Shown here: positions 3,163-60,914 of the stretch, piece by piece
How the letters are laid out: the number at the start of each line of letters is the position of its first letter
How positions within the stretch are numbered: position 1 is the first letter of the stretch
NCBI GenBank assembly: GCA_937766455.1
Contig: CALLXD010000015.1
Coordinates: 700 to 64,699, forward strand
Origin: Vicinamibacterales bacterium
GTDB taxonomy: Bacteria > Acidobacteriota > Vicinamibacteria > Vicinamibacterales > UBA8438
DNA: 64,000 nucleotides
Direction of reading: 5' to 3'
Made by a program: the position numbers and the translations under genes
Notes under the pieces: model-generated
Told to the model about the DNA's origin: nothing
What the model saw: the letters and a program-made list of their open reading frames with translations, nothing else
Database searches by the model: none

Positions 3163-4260
3163 CTACGGGGTCCTTCGGACGGCAGGAGCCCGTGGTGTGA
3201 CGTCGTACCGGGAGACCATCTCCGCGAAAAACAGCTCTGCCATACGGCGATATCCGGCCACCGTCGGGTGGAACCCATCGGCGCCGATGGTGCCCGGGAC
3301 GCCGTTCAACGCGGCGTATAGGTCCACGACATTGCCGAGGCCAAGTTGAGCCGCCATGAGGCGGATCTGGGCGTTCAATGCGAGGAGTGCGGCGCGGGTG
3401 CCAGGGTCGGACGCTTCTCGGGCGTCGCTGACCGGGGTGAGTGTGGCGAGTATTACGTCCACATCGAGCCCCTGAGCGGTGGTCGCCATCGACCGTAGCG
3501 CGCTTGCGATCGGGGTGATGCTGACGGGCGCGGTACTGCCCGGAGGTCGATTGAGCAGGGCGAGGTCGATGTCGTTGAATCCCTCGAACAGCATCATGAC
3601 CTCTGGCTGCGTGGCCAGCAGCGACGATCTGATCCGCAGGAGACCTCCCTGAGTCGCTCGTTCTCCGGCGCTGCCCTCGTTGGCCACGATGAACTGTTGC
3701 GTGGGGTAGCGCGGCACCATCATATTCTGGAGCTGGGCCGGATAGGAGTTGAGGGGCTCGATGGCGCGGGAGATACCCGGGATGGTTCGAGCTCCGGCCC
3801 GGAGCAACGCCGGAATGTCCCGAATCGAGACGCCGGACGGGAGGAAGCTCGCGCCGACGAATCCCTCCGTGATGCTGTCCCCGAACGCCATGTACCGTGT
3901 GAATCGAAGCTTCTCATCCGGCGGTGTGATGGTGATCGGAAATGAACAGGATTCCGCGAATTCGGGCATGTCCGCGGTGCAGGTGACCGTCGACGTGCCG
4001 ATGGGGAACGATGTCCCAGAGACTGGGGCGCAGGACCCTTTGTCGACCGCAATACCGGCCACCGTCGGCACACCCCAGGTGATGGCGACCGGCAAGGCGT
4101 CGAGCGACTGTCGCGCGACCGGAACGGGGCACGACATGAGCGCGGCCACCGGATTGCCAGGCGTCGGCACCGGCGTCGGCGCCGTGGGGGCGTCGCTGGC
4201 GCATCCAGCGGCGAGGAGGGTCACGACGAGCGCACAGGGGCGCAGCCGGTCGAGCATCAT
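3163..4260 (-). CDS. SGNH/GDSL-family hydrolase lipoprotein with an N-terminal beta-sandwich-like domain
   Basis: 365 aa. It has a lipobox signal (LLAAGC), GDSL block I (MAFGDSITEG), block III (FEGFNDI) and block V (GADGFHPTVAGY). Confidence 0.85.
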   Translation of the reverse strand: MMLDRLRPCALVVTLLAAGCASDAPTAPTPVPTPGNPVAALMSCPVPVARQSLDALPVAITWGVPTVAGIAVDKGSCAPVSGTSFPIGTSTVTCTADMPEFAESCSFPITITPPDEKLRFTRYMAFGDSITEGFVGASFLPSGVSIRDIPALLRAGARTIPGISRAIEPLNSYPAQLQNMMVPRYPTQQFIVANEGSAGERATQGGLLRIRSSLLATQPEVMMLFEGFNDIDLALLNRPPGSTAPVSITPIASALRSMATTAQGLDVDVILATLTPVSDAREASDPGTRAALLALNAQIRLMAAQLGLGNVVDLYAALNGVPGTIGADGFHPTVAGYRRMAELFFAEMVSRYDVTPRAPAVRRTP

Positions 4261-41498: not shown

Positions 41499-42410
41499 AT
41501 GGATCGCTCTGGCGGTACGCGCAAGCGCGCCGTCGTCTTGGTGTGGCTACTCGGCGCGGGACTGATCGCGGTCGCGATCGGGCTCAATATCAGCTTCATC
41601 GTCGTCAACTGGCGCACCGGGCTGCTCCTGCTTGTCGGGGTGATCAGCTTTGCCGTGTTGATTGGCGGGCTCGCGCTGAACACGGTGTTCCTCATTCGCG
41701 AGATTCGCAAGAGCGAGCAGCACGACGCCTTCATTCATGCGGTCACGCATGAACTCAAGACCCCCCTCGCGTCGATCAAGTTGTATCTCCAGACCCTCCG
41801 GCAGCGCGAATTCGAGCCGGAGAAGCGGCGGGATCTGATCGACACGATGCTGGAGGATTCGGATCGCTTGCAGCAGACCATCGATCAAATCTTGCTAGCT
41901 GGGAAGACCGGTGCGGCGCGGCGGGTCGATAATCCGACCGACGTCGACGTGTCCGATATCGTGGGGGAGTGTGTTGCCCTCGCGGGCCGCCGTCATCATC
42001 TCGTAGACGGCGAGGTGCGGCTGGTTGATCAGATACCGCACGGAATCTTCGTGGTCAAGGGGGACCGCGAGGAACTGGCCGCCGCGGTCACGAATCTGGT
42101 CGACAATGCCATCAAGTATTCCGGCGCCCGGGTCCGGGTCGGGGTGGATGTGGCGCGCACCGGGGCCAGGCGGGTCGCCATCAGCGTGCGTGACCAGGGC
42201 ATTGGCATCACCGGGCAGGAGCTGAAACGCGTGTTTCGTCGCTTCTACCGGCTCCCGGCCGCGCTGCAGTCGAGAGTGCGGGGGACCGGGATCGGGCTGT
42301 CTATTGTGCGGGCCGTGGCGCGGCGGCACGGCGGACGTGCGTACGCGGAAAGCAGCGGCGCCGGGAAGGGCAGTACCTTCACGCTGGAACTGCCGTTGAA
42401 ATCGTCATGA
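41499..42410 (+). CDS. Sensor histidine kinase, intramembrane-sensing type (2 TM, minimal loop, no HAMP)
   Basis: Two TM helices are separated by about 5 residues (..VVNWRTGLL..). They are followed directly by the H-box FIHAVTHELKTPL, then the N/G boxes (NLVDNAIKY, DQGIGI, GTGIGLSIV). Confidence 0.9.
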   Translation: MDRSGGTRKRAVVLVWLLGAGLIAVAIGLNISFIVVNWRTGLLLLVGVISFAVLIGGLALNTVFLIREIRKSEQHDAFIHAVTHELKTPLASIKLYLQTLRQREFEPEKRRDLIDTMLEDSDRLQQTIDQILLAGKTGAARRVDNPTDVDVSDIVGECVALAGRRHHLVDGEVRLVDQIPHGIFVVKGDREELAAAVTNLVDNAIKYSGARVRVGVDVARTGARRVAISVRDQGIGITGQELKRVFRRFYRLPAALQSRVRGTGIGLSIVRAVARRHGGRAYAESSGAGKGSTFTLELPLKSS

Positions 42411-43147
42411 GCAGGGTGCTCATTGTTGAGGACGAGGAACACCTCGCAGAGGGGTTGCGGTTGAACCTCGAAGCGGAGGGATTTGCCGCCGAGATTGAGG
42501 ACAACGGTCAGGTGGCGTTGGACCGGCTGACGGCCGATTCGAATGCCTTCGACGTCGTGCTCCTGGACGTCATGTTGCCTGGACTCGACGGGTTTGAGGT
42601 GGTCCGACGCCTCCGTGACGCCGGTCGTTTTGTGCCTGTGATGTTGCTGACCGCTCGTTCCGATACCGATGATGTGCTGGCGGGCTTTGAGGCCGGTGCC
42701 GACGACTATTTGTCGAAGCCGTTCGACTTGTCGATTCTGCTGGCTCGGTTGCACGGGCTCCTGCGTCGGAAGACCTGGGTCAGCGGCCGCGCGGCGGACG
42801 GCTCCGTCGAGGAGTTGCGGGAATTTGCATTCGCCGGCAAGCGTATCGACTTCCCCGAACAGACCTTGCACTGGGATGGCACCACGCAGCCGCTGACGTT
42901 GATGGAGGCGACGCTGATGCGCTACTTCGTGCAGCACGCCGGCCACACCGTGTCCCGCAAGGCGCTGCTCGAAGAGGTCTGGGGTGTGCGGGAAGACACC
43001 GACACGCGCACCATAGACAATTTCATCGCGCGCTTGCGGCGGTATCTCGAGGCCGAGCCATCGCATCCCAAGCATCTCCAAACCATCCGGGGCGTCGGGT
43101 ATCGCTTCGTCGCCGAGCCGGACGACCCGGAGACGAGCGGACCATGA
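42407..43147 (+). CDS. OmpR/PhoB-family response regulator
   Basis: The REC domain shows VLIVEDEE and VLLDVMLPGLDG. The winged-helix output shows TLMEATLMRYF and IRGVGYRF. It overlaps the kinase gene by 4 nt. Confidence 0.93.
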   Translation: MSRVLIVEDEEHLAEGLRLNLEAEGFAAEIEDNGQVALDRLTADSNAFDVVLLDVMLPGLDGFEVVRRLRDAGRFVPVMLLTARSDTDDVLAGFEAGADDYLSKPFDLSILLARLHGLLRRKTWVSGRAADGSVEELREFAFAGKRIDFPEQTLHWDGTTQPLTLMEATLMRYFVQHAGHTVSRKALLEEVWGVREDTDTRTIDNFIARLRRYLEAEPSHPKHLQTIRGVGYRFVAEPDDPETSGP

Positions 43148-43782
43148 TTCGAACATTCGCGAAAGTCGCTGTCGGCGTCGCCGCGCTGGGTGTCCTGGTG
43201 TGGCTGTTTCTGTCGACGCTCCAGGACACGATTGCCGAGTCCTACGACGTCGATGGCGCCGCCTTCTCTGGCTGGACGCTGGTGTCGCGGGTGCCGCGGC
43301 CCGGCGAACTGGCGGCGCTGGGCCTTCGCCCACCGCAGCCGTTGGCGCCCGCGTTGTTCGACGAATTGTTTGCCCGGACCATGGCCTCGCTGACGACCCC
43401 CGGCGCCCCCCTGTTGCCCATTGTTCTCGCGCGCGAGGTACAGGGAGAACTGGGGATTGTGCTGACGCCGGACGAGATGCTGACGGTGGCGCGTGAGGCC
43501 GGACTCGAGCGGCTCCAGCTGCGACCGGTCTGCATGGCCGTCAAGCGCGAGCCCTTTATGGGGCGCACACGCGAGTTCTTTTTCATCGTGTTCGACGCGC
43601 CGGAGTTGGCGGCCGTGCGGGAGCAGCTCGGTGCGCTCGCGGCAGAGCGTGGCGTCGCGGGAGCGCTGAACGACCCGACGTTCGAGTTCGTACTTCCGGT
43701 GGCCGCGTCCGATGCGGAATTCGGTTCCTGGTGGCCGCTCGTCGTGGATCGCGAGACAGACTGTCAGGCACCGGTGACATAG
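43144..43782 (+). CDS. Hypothetical membrane-anchored protein
   Basis: 212 aa with an N-terminal TM helix (VAVGVAALGVLVWLFL), no recognised motif and good GC3 bias. An ATGA overlap couples it to the regulator gene. Confidence 0.6.
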   Translation: MIRTFAKVAVGVAALGVLVWLFLSTLQDTIAESYDVDGAAFSGWTLVSRVPRPGELAALGLRPPQPLAPALFDELFARTMASLTTPGAPLLPIVLAREVQGELGIVLTPDEMLTVAREAGLERLQLRPVCMAVKREPFMGRTREFFFIVFDAPELAAVREQLGALAAERGVAGALNDPTFEFVLPVAASDAEFGSWWPLVVDRETDCQAPVT

Positions 43783-43796
43783 GAGAGATAGGAGAG
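43779..43796 (+). repeat. Perfect tandem duplication of a 9-mer carrying a Shine-Dalgarno core (ataggagag x2)
   Basis: 43779-43787 and 43788-43796 are identical. The first copy contains the TAG stop of the upstream gene. The second ends 2 nt before ATG 43799. Confidence 0.9.
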
Positions 43797-43798
43797 AG

Positions 43799-44452
43799 AT
43801 GATGTCGCAAACGACCGTCCTGCAGGTCTTTACCGACTTCGTGTGACCCTGGTGTTATCTCAGTACCGTGCGTATTGAGCGATTGCGGCAGGACTACGAC
43901 ATCAGCGTGCAGTGGGTGTTTTTTCCGTTGCACCCGGAGACCCCCTCGTCGGGGCGTGCGCTTGAGGAACTCTTCGCTGGGCGGGGGTACGACCTGGAGG
44001 CGATGTTCCAACGGATGCAGGGCCTGATGACGCAGGAGGGGCTGGCCTATGGTCGCCGTACTCACACCTACAACAGCCGTCTCGCGCAGGAACTAGCCAC
44101 GTGGGCCGCGGCGCGTCCGGAGCGGGATCAGCTGCACGATCTCATCTACCGCGCGTATTTCGTCGACGGACGCGATATCGGGGATGTGGCGGTCCTCGTT
44201 GACCTGGCCGAGACGGCGGGGCTGCCCGCCGACGAGACCCGCGATGGGCTCGAGCACCGCACGTGGAGCGATGCCGTGGACGCCGACTGGGCGCTCGCGT
44301 CCCGGTCCGGGATTACCGGTGTGCCCACGTTTGCCGCCGGTGCACGACAGGTGGTCGGGGCTCAACCGGAGCCGGTGCTGCGCCAGCTCCTGGAGGCGGC
44401 CGGCGCCCAGCCCCGCGAGACCCAGCCGCGTCCGACCACGACGAGCGGCTGA
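43799..44452 (+). CDS. DsbA/FrnE-family thiol:disulfide oxidoreductase, predicted selenoprotein (UPWC redox motif; in-frame TGA at 43844-43846)
   Basis: ATG 43799 follows the GGAGAG Shine-Dalgarno sequence. Translation gives MMSQTTVLQVFTDFV-TGA-PWCYLSTVRIERLRQDYD, in frame with track ORF 43868..44452. The family consensus at this position is DFVCPWCY. The C-terminal part carries DsbA/FrnE blocks (GITGVPTFAAGARQVVGAQP). Confidence 0.7.
43859..43879 (+). promoter_or_regulatory. Candidate bacterial SECIS hairpin
   Basis: CUCAGUAC-CGUGC-GUAUUGAG forms an 8-bp stem (one G.U pair) with a 5-nt apical loop containing GU. The stem starts 12 nt after the UGA, and the loop starts 20 nt after it. Confidence 0.55.
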
Positions 44453-48169: not shown

Positions 48170-49405
48170 ATGAGCATGAGTAAACGCATCGGTGTTGGTT
48201 TGTCTACGCTGGCGGCGCTCGCCACCATCGTGCCGCAGGCCTGGGCGCAGGACTGGCCACAGTGGCGTGGACCGAGCCGAGACGGGTCGGTCACGGCGTT
48301 CGACGTCCCGTCTGTCTGGCCGCCCGGACTCGACGAGCAGTGGTCGGTCGAGGTCGGTTTCGGCTACGCGTCACCGATTCTGATCGGTGACGTGGTCTAC
48401 ATGTTCACCCGTCAAGGCGACGACGAGGTCATGATGGCGCTGGCCGCAGGGTCAGGGGAGACTCGCTGGGTCACACGCTATCCCGCGCCGTTCACCATGA
48501 TGGCGGCGACCCGCAACCATGGGCCGGGACCGAAATCGACCCCGTCGTACGCCGACGGACGCCTCTTCACCCTGGGCATCAGCGGTATCGTGACCGCCTT
48601 TGACGCCGCTACCGGCGACCAGCTGTGGCAGCGGCCACCCGATGCAGTGGAGCCGCTGTACCACACCGGGCAGTCTCCCTATGTCGATGGTGACCAGGTC
48701 ATTCTGCACGTCGGCGGTCAGGACGCTGGCGCGCTGACCGCCTTTGACGTCGCCACCGGAGCGGTGCGGTGGCAGTGGGACGGCGACGGGCCGGCCTATG
48801 GGTCGCCGATCGTCGTCGAGGTCGAGGGCGTTCGCCAGGTCATCACCTTTACGCAGGAGAATTTTGTGGGCGTCAACGCCGACACCGGTCGATTGTTGTG
48901 GCGCCGGCCCTACACGACCCAGTCGACCACGACGTCCCAGACACCGCGCTTGTATCAGGGGGATGTCATCGAGTCCGGTCGCGGGAATGGCATTACCCGG
49001 TTTCGGGTTGTTCGAGAAGGCAACGCGTGGACGACGGAGGACGTTTGGCACGCGGATGAGGTGTCACTGCACATGACCAACGGGGTTGTGGTCGACGGCG
49101 TCTTGTTCGGCTTGTCACACCTCAACAGCGGCCAGTATTTCGGCCTCGATCTCGATAACGGCGACGTGCTGTGGACCAGCGAGCCGCGCCAGGCCGACAA
49201 CGCTGCCATCCTCAACGTCGGGACGACGATTCTGTCGCTGGAGGAGGATGCGGAGCTGGTGATCGTGGAGCACAGTCGAACCGGCTTCGAGCCCGTCCGG
49301 CGCTACGAGGTGGCCGATAGCTCCACGTGGACGCTTCCGACGCTGTCCGGGAACCGAATGTTTGTCAAAGACGAGGAGTCGCTGACACTCTGGGTCGTCA
49401 AGTAG
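48170..49405 (+). CDS. PQQ-like (BamB-type) beta-propeller protein, exported
   Basis: It has a signal peptide (LSTLAALATIVPQAWA), the DWPQWRGPSRDGS entry motif and repeated propeller blades (..TGDQLWQ.., ..TGAVRWQW.., ..TGRLLWRR..). Confidence 0.8.
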   Translation: MSMSKRIGVGLSTLAALATIVPQAWAQDWPQWRGPSRDGSVTAFDVPSVWPPGLDEQWSVEVGFGYASPILIGDVVYMFTRQGDDEVMMALAAGSGETRWVTRYPAPFTMMAATRNHGPGPKSTPSYADGRLFTLGISGIVTAFDAATGDQLWQRPPDAVEPLYHTGQSPYVDGDQVILHVGGQDAGALTAFDVATGAVRWQWDGDGPAYGSPIVVEVEGVRQVITFTQENFVGVNADTGRLLWRRPYTTQSTTTSQTPRLYQGDVIESGRGNGITRFRVVREGNAWTTEDVWHADEVSLHMTNGVVVDGVLFGLSHLNSGQYFGLDLDNGDVLWTSEPRQADNAAILNVGTTILSLEEDAELVIVEHSRTGFEPVRRYEVADSSTWTLPTLSGNRMFVKDEESLTLWVVK

Positions 49406-49479
49406 ACGGGGTCGACCCGCTGACGCCCTGCCCCGCTGACCCCCTGAAGACGAAGCGAACAACCGTAGAGGAGAACATC

Positions 49480-50139
49480 ATGTCATTGAGCATCAACAGT
49501 ACTGCGCCGGATTTCACGGCGAAAACGACGCAGGGCACCATCAATTTTCACGAGTGGATCGGCGACGGGTGGGTGGTCTTGTGCTCCCATCCGAAGGACT
49601 TTACGCCGGTCTGCACCACGGAGCTGGGTACCCTGGCGGGCCTGCAGGGCGAATTCGAGAAGCGGAACTGCAAGATTCTCGGGATCAGCGTCGACGGCGT
49701 GAGCAAACACGAGGCGTGGTCGAAAGACATCGAAGCGTCACAGGGGCACGCGGTCGGGTATCCGCTCATCGGTGACCCCACCTTGGCCATCGTCAAGGCC
49801 TACGACATGCTGCCAGCCGACGCCGGCGACACCAGCGAGGGACGCACGCCGGCCGACAACGCCACAGCCCGTTCGGTCTTCGTGATTGGTCCAGACAAGA
49901 AGATCAAGGCCACGATTACCTATCCGATGAGCACCGGTCGCAACTTTAACGAGATCGTGCGTTTGCTCGACTCGTGCCAGCTCACGGCGCAGAAGAAGGT
50001 GGCCACGCCGGCCAACTGGAATCAGGGAGATAAGGTCATCATCCTCCCGTCGGTCTCCGATGAGGAGGCGAAGGCCACCTATCCAGACGGATGGGAGCAG
50101 CCGCTGCCCTACATCCGCGTTGTGCCGCAGCCGAAGTAA
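49480..50139 (+). CDS. 1-Cys peroxiredoxin (Prx6-type)
   Basis: It has the PDFTAKTTQG...WVVLCSHPKDFTPVCTTELG peroxidatic-Cys block and the VATPANW block. A GAGGAG Shine-Dalgarno sequence lies upstream. Confidence 0.93.
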   Translation: MSLSINSTAPDFTAKTTQGTINFHEWIGDGWVVLCSHPKDFTPVCTTELGTLAGLQGEFEKRNCKILGISVDGVSKHEAWSKDIEASQGHAVGYPLIGDPTLAIVKAYDMLPADAGDTSEGRTPADNATARSVFVIGPDKKIKATITYPMSTGRNFNEIVRLLDSCQLTAQKKVATPANWNQGDKVIILPSVSDEEAKATYPDGWEQPLPYIRVVPQPK

Positions 50140-57581: not shown

Positions 57582-58472
57582 ATGCGAAATCGGTTGAGAA
57601 CGACAATTATTGCCAGCGCGGCGGCTGCCGTCGTGGCGGTTGGCATGTCCTTCACGGTGCAGTCCGTCGAAGGGCAGCAGGGTTATCAGGCGCCACAGAC
57701 GGCAGACGGCAAGCCTGATTTGAACGGCATTTGGCAGGCTGTCAGCAGTGCGCATTTCGACGTCGAACCGCATGCGGCGCGGTTCGGGCCGGTCGTTGAG
57801 ATGGCGGCTCACGGCGCCATTCCGGGCGGACTGGGTATCGTCCAAGGTGGTGAAATTCCGTATCGACCCGAAGCCCGAGCGAAGCAGCAGGAGAACCTCC
57901 AGTATTGGTTGGAGCGCGATCCCGCCACAAAGTGCTACATGCCGGGTGTGCCGCGCGCCACCTACATGCCGTTTCCGTTCCAGTTGGTCCAGACCCCTGA
58001 GTACGTGCTGCTGGCATACGAGTTCGCGAGTGCGAGCCGCATCGTCTACATGGACCGGCCAGATTTCGAAGCGCCCGTCGACTCGTGGATGGGCCACAAC
58101 ATCGGTAGCTGGGACGGCGATACCCTGGTCATTGATGTGACGGCGCAAATGCCTGACACCTGGTTGGACCAGTCTGGCAACCACCACAGCAACTCGATTC
58201 ACGTGGTGGAGCGCTACACGGCGCTGAGCGAAAACCACCTCATGTATGAGGCCACCATCACCGACCCCGAGACCTACACGCGACCCTGGACCATTCAGTT
58301 GCCGCTGTATCGCCGAATCGACGAGAACATGCAGTTGCTCGAGTTCAAGTGTGTCGAGTTTGCTGAGGAGCTGATGTATGGGCACCTTCGTAAAGACCCG
58401 GATCTGACGCCAACCTACCGTGCCAGTGGCCACGGGTCTGACCGCCAGATCGCTCTTGAACCGCCGCAGTAG
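57582..58472 (+). CDS. Secreted hypothetical protein (~30 kDa)
   Basis: An AAGGAG Shine-Dalgarno sequence and a signal peptide (IIASAAAAVVAVGMSF) are present. Conserved-looking blocks are DGKPDLNGIWQA, GSWDGDTLVIDV, VVERYTALSENHLMYEATITDPETYTRPWT. I recall no named domain. Confidence 0.7.
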   Translation: MRNRLRTTIIASAAAAVVAVGMSFTVQSVEGQQGYQAPQTADGKPDLNGIWQAVSSAHFDVEPHAARFGPVVEMAAHGAIPGGLGIVQGGEIPYRPEARAKQQENLQYWLERDPATKCYMPGVPRATYMPFPFQLVQTPEYVLLAYEFASASRIVYMDRPDFEAPVDSWMGHNIGSWDGDTLVIDVTAQMPDTWLDQSGNHHSNSIHVVERYTALSENHLMYEATITDPETYTRPWTIQLPLYRRIDENMQLLEFKCVEFAEELMYGHLRKDPDLTPTYRASGHGSDRQIALEPPQ

Positions 58473-58513
58473 GTAGAGTGAGTTTCACGTTGTCGCATCG
58501 CCTCGTATCGGTG

Positions 58514-58542
58514 TTGACGCCAGCGTGTGAAATGTTGATAAT
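58514..58542 (+). promoter_or_regulatory. Near-consensus sigma70 promoter in an AT-rich spacer upstream of the DUF6152-like gene
   Basis: TTGACG (58514-58519), 17-nt spacer, GATAAT (58537-58542). A GGAGG Shine-Dalgarno sequence starts at about 58568, and the ATG is at 58583. Confidence 0.6.
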
Positions 58543-58582
58543 CAACGAAGGTTTTATTTTCTAGATTTTGGAGGCGAATTAG

Positions 58583-58999
58583 ATGCGAAGAAACATTGCC
58601 ATCGTCTTGGCTGGGGTTGTCATGGCGTTGGCCACCGTGCCGGTGGTCGCGCATCATGCGTTCTCGGCTGAATTTGACGCCAACCGTCCAATCCATCTCG
58701 AGGGCAAAGTGGTGAAGATGGAGTGGATCAACCCGCACGCATGGGTTCATCTTGAAATTGAGGATGGGACTGTGTGGATGGTTGAGGGCGGAACGCCCAA
58801 CACGCTACTCCGCCGTGGTTTCACGAAGAACTCGCTGCTTCCAGGCACCGAGATCATCGTTGACGGGTATCAGGCGAAGGACGGTTCCGACAAGGGGAAC
58901 GGCCGAGACCTGACATTCAAGGACGGGCGCAAACTGTTCATGGGTTCGTCAGGAACCGGTGCGCCGACCGATGGTCGCGACGCCACGGAACCTGAATAG
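58583..58999 (+). CDS. DUF6152-like small periplasmic protein; predicted mature N-terminus His-His
   Basis: 138 aa. The signal peptide ends ..TVPVVA, followed by HHAFSAEFD..., then LEGKVVKMEWINPHAWVHL and GGTPNTLLRRGF..LLPG..I.VDGYQAKDGS. This matches my recollection of DUF6152 (AHHSF..FD...G.V..W.NPH). Confidence 0.75.
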   Translation: MRRNIAIVLAGVVMALATVPVVAHHAFSAEFDANRPIHLEGKVVKMEWINPHAWVHLEIEDGTVWMVEGGTPNTLLRRGFTKNSLLPGTEIIVDGYQAKDGSDKGNGRDLTFKDGRKLFMGSSGTGAPTDGRDATEPE

Positions 59000-59038
59000 A
59001 GGGTAGACCGTCGAGCAGTTCGACGGACGAATTGAAGA

Positions 59039-59075
59039 GAGCCTGGACGCGCGAGCGTCCGGGCTCTTTTTTTTT
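59039..59075 (+). terminator. Strong rho-independent terminator after the DUF6152-like gene
   Basis: GAGCCTGGACGC-GCGA-GCGTCCGGGCTC (12-bp stem with a GNRA tetraloop) followed by a T9 run. A second 7-bp hairpin lies at 59010-59028. Confidence 0.9.
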
Positions 59076-59220
59076 GAGCGCGACACGGCGGGCGTCACCG
59101 CAAGAGGTTTTGCTTGAATCGGGGAGCCCAACAGGTGTACAACCCTGTGTTCACGGATTCTCTCTTGTTGGCTTGAACGGCGGCGCCGGCACACCGGACG
59201 CTGGTAAAGGGTGGTTGGCG

Positions 59221-59832
59221 ATGGTGACGCGTACGTTCATCGTAGTAGCGGTCCTGGCCGTCCCGCTGTCCGGGGCCGCGCAATCGAACGGCCCGGAGTC
59301 GGCTGAACAGTCGTCCCTTTCCAGCCGGGCCTCAGATCTGTCGATGGGGCCTCAGGTGGGGGACTGGTCACTGCAATTGGGCGGCTCGTTCTTCCGTGAG
59401 TCCTGGGATCTCAACGTGTTCCGAGAGCGGCTCGCGGGCGCGTCCGCCAGCGCGTTTCGGCAGCTCACGCCACGGTGGGCGATAGGGATAGAGACCAACC
59501 TGCTGCATGTTCGACAGGATCCGCTGAAGGACGTGCTACTGCCTGCGGTCAATGTCCTGGCTCGGTGGAGCGCCCTACAGCTGGGCAAGACGGTGCTCTT
59601 CATCGAGGGGGGCGGTGGGCTCTCATACGCCTCAGGTCTGGTACCATACGAGGGGACGCGATTTAATTTTGTCTCGCAGACCGGTGTCGGTCTCTTGCGT
59701 CCCGTCTCCCCCCGTGTCGATCTGTTGGGAGGGGCTCGGTGGCTCCACGTGTCTAACAATGGACTCGACGGCAGTCGACGGAACCCGGACATTCAAGCGC
59801 TCGGATTCTACGTTGGCTGGGGTCTGCACTGA
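59221..59832 (+). CDS. Acyloxyacyl hydrolase / lipid A 3-O-deacylase (PagL)-like outer-membrane beta-barrel
   Basis: It has a signal peptide, alternating beta-strand pattern, the catalytic-site-like WLHVSNNG (H-x-S-N) block and a C-terminal aromatic-rich strand (GFYVGWGLH). Confidence 0.7.
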   Translation: MVTRTFIVVAVLAVPLSGAAQSNGPESAEQSSLSSRASDLSMGPQVGDWSLQLGGSFFRESWDLNVFRERLAGASASAFRQLTPRWAIGIETNLLHVRQDPLKDVLLPAVNVLARWSALQLGKTVLFIEGGGGLSYASGLVPYEGTRFNFVSQTGVGLLRPVSPRVDLLGGARWLHVSNNGLDGSRRNPDIQALGFYVGWGLH

Positions 59833-59942
59833 GTCGCTGTTCCGATGTACCGCCTGGTGTCCCAGCGTGTGCGGCTGACGGATGCGGCCGTCTCGCGCCG
59901 GAACAGTGGAGACGGTCACGCGCGCGCGGACGCTCGCGTAGA

Positions 59943-60914
59943 ATGGAGACGGCGAGTTCCATGGCCAAGACTCCCTTCCACGTCCATTCGGCGCTCACAC
60001 TCGCATCACTCGCGCTAGCCGCCGTGGCGCTGGCCGCGGCCCCGGGGGCCCAGCGGCGCAACGACGGCACCGACATCTTCCGGTCCGGTGTGGACGTGGT
60101 GCAGGTGACGGCGACCGTCACTGATGCGGACGGTCGACTCGTCGTAGACCTTGAGCGGGATGACTTCGAGATCTTCGAGGACGGACACCTCCAAACGCTG
60201 ACCCACTTCACGCGCGATCGGGTGCCGCTCAGTCTCGGCGTCGTGCTCGACATCAGTCAGAGCATGTCTGGCCAGCGCATCGATGACTCGCGGCTCGCCC
60301 TTGACCAGTTTCTCGCCGATCGTCTCGACCCCGCCGACGAAGTATTCGTGATCGTGTTCAACCACAGCCCGGTGGTGGAGGTGTCATGGATGCGCGGTCC
60401 GCGTCGTGTCCGTCACCGTCTCGACTCCATTCGTCCCTGGGGCGGCACGAGTATCTACGATGCCATGGTGGAGGCACTGCCGCTGTTCGAGTCGCGGGCG
60501 AACCAGCGAGCCGCCGTGGTGCTGATTTCAGACGGGGCCGACACCGGGAGCCGCGCGGATGTGCGCGACGTCCGGCGTCAATTGCGCCGGAGCGACGCGT
60601 TCGTGTACGCCATCGCGATTGATGCACCCGAGACTCGCGCGATCAATGATCGGGTGAACCCGTCCGCCTTACGTGAAATGACGACGGAGAGTGGCGGCTA
60701 CACGGAGGTGGTGCACGACAGTCCTGAGCTGGCGCCGGCGACGGCTCGCATTGCGGACGAACTCAACCATCAGTACACGCTCAGCTACACGCCGACCCGG
60801 TCGGCGGATGGCACGTATCGGTCGATCCGAGTGCGCGTCGCAGGCGACTACCGCGTCCGCAACCGTCGAGGGTATGTCGCCGACCCTCATCTGGGCGGCG
60901 ACGCCGGTCGTTAG
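59943..60914 (+). CDS. VWA-domain protein of the acidobacterial VWFA-related type
   Basis: The N-terminal block is FRSGVDVVQVTATVTDADGRLVVDLERDDFEIFEDG. The MIDAS motif is VLDISQSMSG. Other blocks are GGTSIYDA, LISDGADT and the C-terminal YTLSYTPT...YRSIRVRV. Confidence 0.85.
   Translation: METASSMAKTPFHVHSALTLASLALAAVALAAAPGAQRRNDGTDIFRSGVDVVQVTATVTDADGRLVVDLERDDFEIFEDGHLQTLTHFTRDRVPLSLGVVLDISQSMSGQRIDDSRLALDQFLADRLDPADEVFVIVFNHSPVVEVSWMRGPRRVRHRLDSIRPWGGTSIYDAMVEALPLFESRANQRAAVVLISDGADTGSRADVRDVRRQLRRSDAFVYAIAIDAPETRAINDRVNPSALREMTTESGGYTEVVHDSPELAPATARIADELNHQYTLSYTPTRSADGTYRSIRVRVAGDYRVRNRRGYVADPHLGGDAGR

Follow-up and report, generated by a model that had tools for sequence, protein, structure and literature searches.

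The open reading frame called at 43868..44452 on the forward strand of the 64-kb stretch of DNA analysed here (the window) encodes 194 amino acids of a DsbA/FrnE-like protein, both in our list of open reading frames and as the called gene of public assemblies. The question that it raises is whether the gene really begins at GTG 43868 or is the visible part of a longer one, hidden by an in-frame TGA. Judging from the sequence comparisons reported below, the second answer is strongly preferred. The segment that begins at ATG 43799 or 43802 and ends at 44452 is, with high probability, a selenocysteine (Sec)-encoding gene with a functional SECIS element, and TGA 43844 very probably specifies an active-site Sec of a cytoplasmic thiol oxidoreductase of the FrnE/DsbA type. 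A preliminary description of the locus had proposed such a reading, and every refutation test that was run came out in its favour.

Read directly, the frame runs from two adjacent ATG codons, 43799 and 43802, through MMSQTTVLQVFTDFV to the TGA at 43844-43846, continues with PWCYLSTVRIERL and stays open up to a stop TGA at 44450-44452. The full coding sequence (43799..44452, forward strand) comprises 217 codons from ATG 43799 and 216 from ATG 43802, the position that aligns with the start codon of relatives. The hidden longer gene, with PWCY following the TGA, is as it had been described, save that its translation starts with MMSQ and not with MSQ. Two copies of the Shine-Dalgarno sequence AGGAGA (43781-43786 and 43790-43795, forward strand) lie ahead of it, the first overlapping the TAG stop of the upstream gene and the second leaving 4 nt to ATG 43799 and 7 nt to ATG 43802. 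Inspection of the sequence before GTG 43868 revealed nothing resembling a Shine-Dalgarno sequence, and this difference between the two starts, noted earlier, is plain in the sequence. GTG 43868 itself, the start chosen by the caller, falls inside the apical loop of the hairpin discussed below. The ORF 43868..44452 is an annotation artefact, and the anticipated truncation is indeed what databases hold, where the gene is carried as 171-194 aa.

Three genes on the same strand (41499..43782) precede the Sec gene and are apparently co-transcribed with it: a histidine kinase (41499-42410), an OmpR-type response regulator (42407-43147), both recognized by Pfam, and a 212-aa protein with an N-terminal hydrophobic helix (43144-43782), for which no Pfam or NCBIfam family was found. 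Their junctions are 4-nt overlaps, followed by a 16-nt gap ahead of the Sec gene, which appears to be the last member of a four-gene operon. The 212-aa protein, which is membrane-anchored, stands in translational coupling between the response regulator and the Sec gene and has conserved counterparts in L001 (77%), L002 (57%) and L067 (40%). The gene order is kept in the two closest acidobacterial MAGs (L001 and L002) and not in other phyla. L001 is the Vicinamibacterales MAG JAPYUM01, in which the order is the same and neighbouring genes are 75-91% identical. The window as a whole is also matched, at 97-99.9% identity, by metagenome contigs of marine and other environmental origin, among them a TARA scaffold; together with the gene order of JAPYUM01, this makes a Vicinamibacterales-like acidobacterium its likely source. 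Elsewhere in the window, 5 kb downstream of the Sec gene, a 1-Cys peroxiredoxin (49327-50139; AhpC-TSA and 1-cysPrx_C domains) is an ordinary Cys protein without in-frame TGA, and an ORF-poor stretch at 58472-59943 contains ordinary ORFs.

Written with Cys in place of TGA 43844, the 217-aa product matches the Pfam family DSBA (PF01323) with E = 3e-32 and 112 bits against a cut-off of 25.6, and its closest solved structure is FrnE of Deinococcus radiodurans (drFrnE; 5CNW/5CP1, E = 1e-22, residues 8-212), which bears out the DsbA/FrnE assignment made earlier. The Pfam match spans residues 8-198, corresponding to profile positions 2-190 of 191, and the 15 codons upstream of the TGA therefore belong to the domain. 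TGA 43844..43846 (forward strand) stands in place of the first Cys of the CPWC motif: residue 16, the N-terminal redox residue of UPWC, aligns with Cys22 in the CPWC of drFrnE, and Cys homologues have their cysteine at the same codon, exactly where the preliminary description had placed it. UPWC occupies residues 16-19, with 15 residues ahead of the active site, and since the active site is already reached at residue 16, a signal peptide is absent. Cys19 (TGT, 43853..43855, forward strand), the resolving Cys of UxxC, is invariant in all relatives and is the only cysteine in the translation; beyond residue 19 the sequence is Cys-free, and the C-terminal tail is rich in Pro, Thr and Gly and lacks a CxxxxC motif. 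In thioredoxin folds, the usual cis-proline faces the active site. By analogy, Pro176 (codon 44324..44326, forward strand), which belongs to a TGVP loop aligning with ITGVP of FrnE, probably adopts the cis conformation; T173, G174, V175 and P176 show no variation across relatives.

A protein search gave 7481 matches at E <= 1e-10, among which the nearest (67-95% identity) are without exception 171-190 aa long and start at differing, arbitrary points past the TGA (VRIERL, MQWVFF, MFFPLH and others), full-length Cys-containing proteins being encountered only at about 55-65% identity. When genomes were scanned, one per GTDB species, 471 loci encoding a relative were obtained, of which the best 80 were kept. 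Among these best 80 of 471, the codon aligned with 43844 is TGA in 77 and TGT or TGC in 3 (L042, L069 and L078), with FTD[YF]V before the aligned TGA and PWCYLST after it. The refuting case, relatives devoid of the upstream segment, did not materialize, the segment and the TGA being kept together in those 77. Sec/Cys pairs are likewise present among relatives: apart from the three loci just named, Cys is found at the residue-16 codon in proteins P0008, P0009, P0017 and P0021 and in 23 metagenome loci. Carriers among the best 80 loci belong to Acidobacteriota, Alpha-, Beta- and Gammaproteobacteria, Myxococcota, Rokubacteria and Vulcanimicrobiota, that is, to at least five phyla; the closest are Vicinamibacterales and other Acidobacteriota (73%, gene order kept), and many are Alphaproteobacteria, including the cultured Desertibaculum subflavum. 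In the five codons before the TGA, relatives vary mainly at third positions, which argues that the upstream segment is translated in the same frame and that the peptide it would encode is under purifying selection.

Some of these carriers show peculiarities of their own. Locus L032 (3673-6077) contains three copies in direct orientation (3673, 4918 and 6004) of the initial ~74 nt of the Sec-DsbA gene, from the ATG through the TGA to the first half of the SECIS, the copies being spaced by inserts of 1.1-1.2 kb with unrelated small ORFs beside a tRNA-Leu(cag); the full gene follows the third copy only. This looks like the insertion of small elements into the invariant 5' end, each bringing a replacement copy. 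In the alphaproteobacterial loci L008, L012, L032, L037, L046 and L071, the opposite strand carries a tRNA-Leu(cag) gene upstream of Sec-DsbA, at distances from under 200 nt to about 5.4 kb.

Downstream of the TGA lies the candidate bacterial SECIS hairpin at 43859..43879 (forward strand), composed of a 5' arm (43859-43866), an apical loop CGUGC (43867-43871) and a 3' arm (43872-43879). The sequence CUCAGUAC-CGUGC-GUAUUGAG folds into 8 bp, including one G-U pair, with a predicted energy of -7.5 kcal/mol. Taken alone, the hairpin is only marginally stable and is not statistically unusual (z = -1.5 in a 57-nt context, 14 of 200 shuffles folding equally well). Because the fold is so unremarkable against shuffles, its significance comes only from comparative data. 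These were obtained from an alignment of 78 TGA forms, taken from the TGA onward. The 8-bp hairpin that had been described does fold, but its conserved helix is a core of only 7 bp (43860-43866 with 43872-43878, alignment columns 17-23 with 29-35), the outermost pair 43859/43879 being formed in just 15 of 68 distinct relatives.

In this alignment, CTCAGTACCG[T/G]GCGTATTGA is almost invariant in the 78 TGA forms even at synonymous sites, and 98.5% of the cells of the 7-bp helix are paired. Pair 21-31 is U-A in 55 sequences, C-G in 13 and unpaired in none, pair 19-33 has changed once from A-U to U-A, and pair 20-32 four times from G-U to G-C. Since many carriers are related Alphaproteobacteria, these compensatory changes may stem from few independent events. 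A contrast is provided by 23 distinct Cys-form genes that share the peptide context YL[SC]T.R[IV]E and served as a control set. All seven pairs are formed in 61 of 68 Sec forms and in none of the 23 Cys forms; the Arg codon is CGT in every one of the 68 Sec forms, against 1/23; and the loop reads CG[U/G]GC (CGKGC) in 65/68, against 0/23. The residue encoded by the loop is Val or Gly (GUG or GGG) in Sec forms, whereas Cys forms have Pro or Ala. The tie between hairpin and TGA suspected earlier is hence borne out, the structure being conserved with compensatory changes in TGA forms only.

A covariance model of the hairpin, based on 40 relatives with the window left out, finds a single match in the window, at 43854-43883 (45.3 bits, E = 8e-9), while scores at the corresponding positions of Cys forms are 12-27 bits. 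Two Cys-form genes (L096:218-247 and L102:2150-2179) retain most of the hairpin as CUCAGCAC-UCCAC-GUGUCGAG and score 26.6 bits with this model, the other Cys forms reaching 12-22 bits; the remnant may have been left by a recent conversion from Sec to Cys. A further helix proposed by RNAalifold below the hairpin (columns 11-13 with 38-40, TGY with AAR, 28 apparent compensatory changes) was rejected as evidence, because it pairs equally well in Cys forms (21/23) and because its pattern of T/A versus C/G is expected from genome GC3 bias alone.

The geometry of the hairpin agrees with the published bSECIS model, which specifies a loop of 3-9 nt, an upper stem of 4-16 bp, a G in the first two loop positions, a UGA-to-loop spacing of 16-37 nt and a minimum free energy of -7.5 kcal/mol or lower (PMC13188914). 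The window element has a loop of 5 nt, an upper stem of 7-8 bp, a G at loop position 2 followed by U, and 20 nt between UGA 43844 and the loop; its energy of -7.5 kcal/mol lies exactly on the threshold. In spacing and form it agrees, as had been suggested, with a hairpin of the SelB-dependent type. Rfam contains no family that reaches its gathering threshold anywhere in the window, and at E <= 10 the segment 43780-43960 gives a single snoRNA match, which is meaningless.

The machinery for Sec decoding was sought in the window and, in part, beyond it. ARAGORN found no tRNA of any kind, including tRNA-Sec, in the 64 kb, a Pfam scan of about 55 window ORFs gave no SelA, SelB or SelD, and the 10 kb beyond the right end of the window contain neither sel genes nor tRNA-Sec. 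Among the relatives, the betaproteobacterial MAG at L048 has, 2.4 kb ahead of its TGA-form gene, selB (TIGR00475, 354.5 bits against a cut-off of 242) with tRNA-SeC(tca) immediately after it, and in L076 a partial selB is located at the locus edge. In L048 (1687-3681), selB ends at 3597 and tRNA-SeC starts at 3587, giving an overlap of about 10 nt, an arrangement reminiscent of the selC-selB nesting or overlap reported by Mukai 2021 (cited in PMC13188914). Between this pair and the Sec-DsbA gene of the MAG is an ArsR-rhodanese fusion gene. Acidobacteria have been named among the phyla that contain selenoproteins (PMC1794560).

Several other explanations of the in-frame TGA deserve to be weighed against Sec. 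In-frame stops in metagenome contigs are often errors, and all database entries for this gene begin downstream of the TGA, so that a nonsense mutation in a pseudogene, or an assembly error concealing a true TGC or TGT, is a natural suspicion. It is nevertheless effectively refuted, and we give it next to no credence: five independent assemblies, which come from different samples and are overall 96.95-99.89% identical to the window, show no difference over 141 nt around and including the TGA, and the reproducibility of the codon was thereby confirmed. Related genomes of different phyla share the TGA, the peptide before it bears the marks of purifying selection, and the hairpin is conserved in linkage with it. 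A pseudogene is incompatible with such conservation of the TGA, the flanking peptide and the hairpin. No more credible is the supposition that the annotation is correct and that a truncated DSBA protein is made from GTG 43868, the 15 upstream codons serving as a leader peptide or being left untranslated. Gene callers did choose this model, but the start lacks the ribosome-binding signal that is duplicated before ATG 43799/43802, the product would be deprived of the entire CxxC motif and of strand beta-1 of the domain, and the called starts vary among relatives, as arbitrary truncation would give. The GTG moreover forms part of the SECIS loop, and many relatives have GGG in its place.

It is also conceivable that UGA 43844 is translated without Sec, being read through as Trp or Cys by a near-cognate tRNA or decoded by a suppressor tRNA, with the hairpin as a generic stimulator of read-through. 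Stem-loops 3' of stop codons can stimulate read-through in general, and this, together with the lack of sel genes and tRNA-Sec in the window and the 10 kb to its right, speaks for the idea. Read-through of this kind is still very unlikely, given that the site is the catalytic Cys of CxxC, a classical Sec/Cys position, that the loop displays at the required spacing the G[U/G] feature of SelB-binding bSECIS elements, that selB and tRNA-Sec adjoin the gene in L048, and that TGA otherwise functions as an ordinary stop codon in the window. Reassignment of the codon is ruled out by the same usage, TGA terminating 27 of 54 well-supported window ORFs. A scan for further genes with in-frame TGA in the window returned only antisense shadows of known genes.

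With Sec as the favoured reading, the following sequence of events can be envisaged. Translation would start at the ATG behind the strong Shine-Dalgarno sequence; on reaching UGA 43844, the ribosome would encounter the hairpin, 12 nt downstream, bound by SelB·GTP·Sec-tRNA(Sec), and Sec would be inserted in place of termination. In the product, a selenenylsulfide between U16 and C19 would replace the disulfide of Cys-type FrnE, and the protein may reduce or isomerise disulfides of cytoplasmic substrates.

The immediate consequence concerns annotation: the correct product would be a 217-aa selenoprotein, which is reported everywhere as 171-194 aa without its active site. By implication, a marine Vicinamibacterales-like acidobacterium would decode Sec and need selenium, and a cytoplasmic selenenylsulfide oxidoreductase would be added to its redox toolkit. 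The contrast between Sec and Cys forms at synonymous codons supplies a clean and reusable signature for this FrnE-like SECIS. Knowledge of selenoproteins in general is unchanged by the finding. What may be under-appreciated is that the clade is overwhelmingly of the Sec type, with a near-invariant SECIS, and is systematically truncated in databases. It is tempting to go further and to count this FrnE-like clade among the unannotated selenoproteins with the widest distribution in aerobic soil and marine bacteria. On this view, the near invariance across phyla of a SECIS of roughly 20 nt would point to gene and SECIS having been passed on horizontally more than once, and in at least one genome (L032) the invariant 5' end and SECIS would offer an insertion site to small elements that bring a replacement copy; we regard this wider picture as speculative and rather doubtful.

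Comparison with known oxidoreductases places the window protein close to drFrnE (DR_0659; 5CNW, 5CP1), with which it shares an active site of the CP(W/F)C type near the N-terminus (C-P-W-C in drFrnE), the absence of a signal peptide and the GVP cis-Pro loop, while differing in having Sec where drFrnE has Cys at the first active-site position. FrnE proteins are cytoplasmic disulfide reductases or isomerases of the DsbA family, and sensitivity to cadmium and diamide has been reported for the drFrnE mutant (PMC8945050). The active site of drFrnE is regenerated by a C-terminal CxxxxC tail (PMC8945050), which the window protein, with no Cys besides C19, does not possess; it must therefore be re-reduced differently. 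Tail-independent re-reduction has been proposed also for FrnE of S. roseofulvus and D. maricopensis, and since some FrnE proteins are without the tail as well (PMC8945050), its absence does not exclude membership in the FrnE group. The periplasmic DsbA of E. coli is more distant in design, having a signal peptide, a CPHC site and DsbB as partner, whereas the window protein has UPWC and no room for a signal peptide; no DsbB-like gene was found near the Sec gene in the Pfam scan of window ORFs.

The hairpin, for its part, shares with E. coli fdhF-type SECIS elements and the bSECIS consensus (Zhang and Gladyshev, as summarised in PMC13188914) a stem-loop located in the coding region 3' of the UGA and a small apical loop in which G precedes U or G, at a spacing of 20 nt within the 16-37 nt of the consensus. 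Its sequence is unrelated to that of E. coli SECIS elements, and no bulged U was identified in it. Among bSECIS elements it stands out as unusually invariant across phyla, reading CUCAGUACCG[U/G]GCGUAUUGA, and is a member of no Rfam family.

Both the selenoprotein family and the mechanism are already established, and the present gene is a further member. A "DsbA-like protein" of COG2761 with UxxC was defined in 2005 as a family of selenoproteins, on the strength of nine sequences in Sargasso Sea data that carry predicted SECIS elements (PMC1088965). In 2006 it was reported from deltaproteobacteria and clostridia (PMC1794560) and in 2016 from 41 organisms (PMC5029168), and it appears in a 2026 review as "DsbA-like protein form 1" with PF01323 and UxxC (PMC13188914). 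NCBIfam offers no dedicated seleno-model that captures the window protein. The sub-clade studied here probably corresponds to published DsbA-like examples (AACY01178397, NIP15863.1), a match based on family, COG and motif only. With the known family the window gene shares PF01323, Sec at the first position of CxxC, Cys homologues at that position, and a SECIS stem-loop just 3' of the UGA with a G in its small apical loop; it differs in its origin, the present copy coming from a marine Vicinamibacterales-like acidobacterium and from a clade whose members have so far been stored as truncated proteins.
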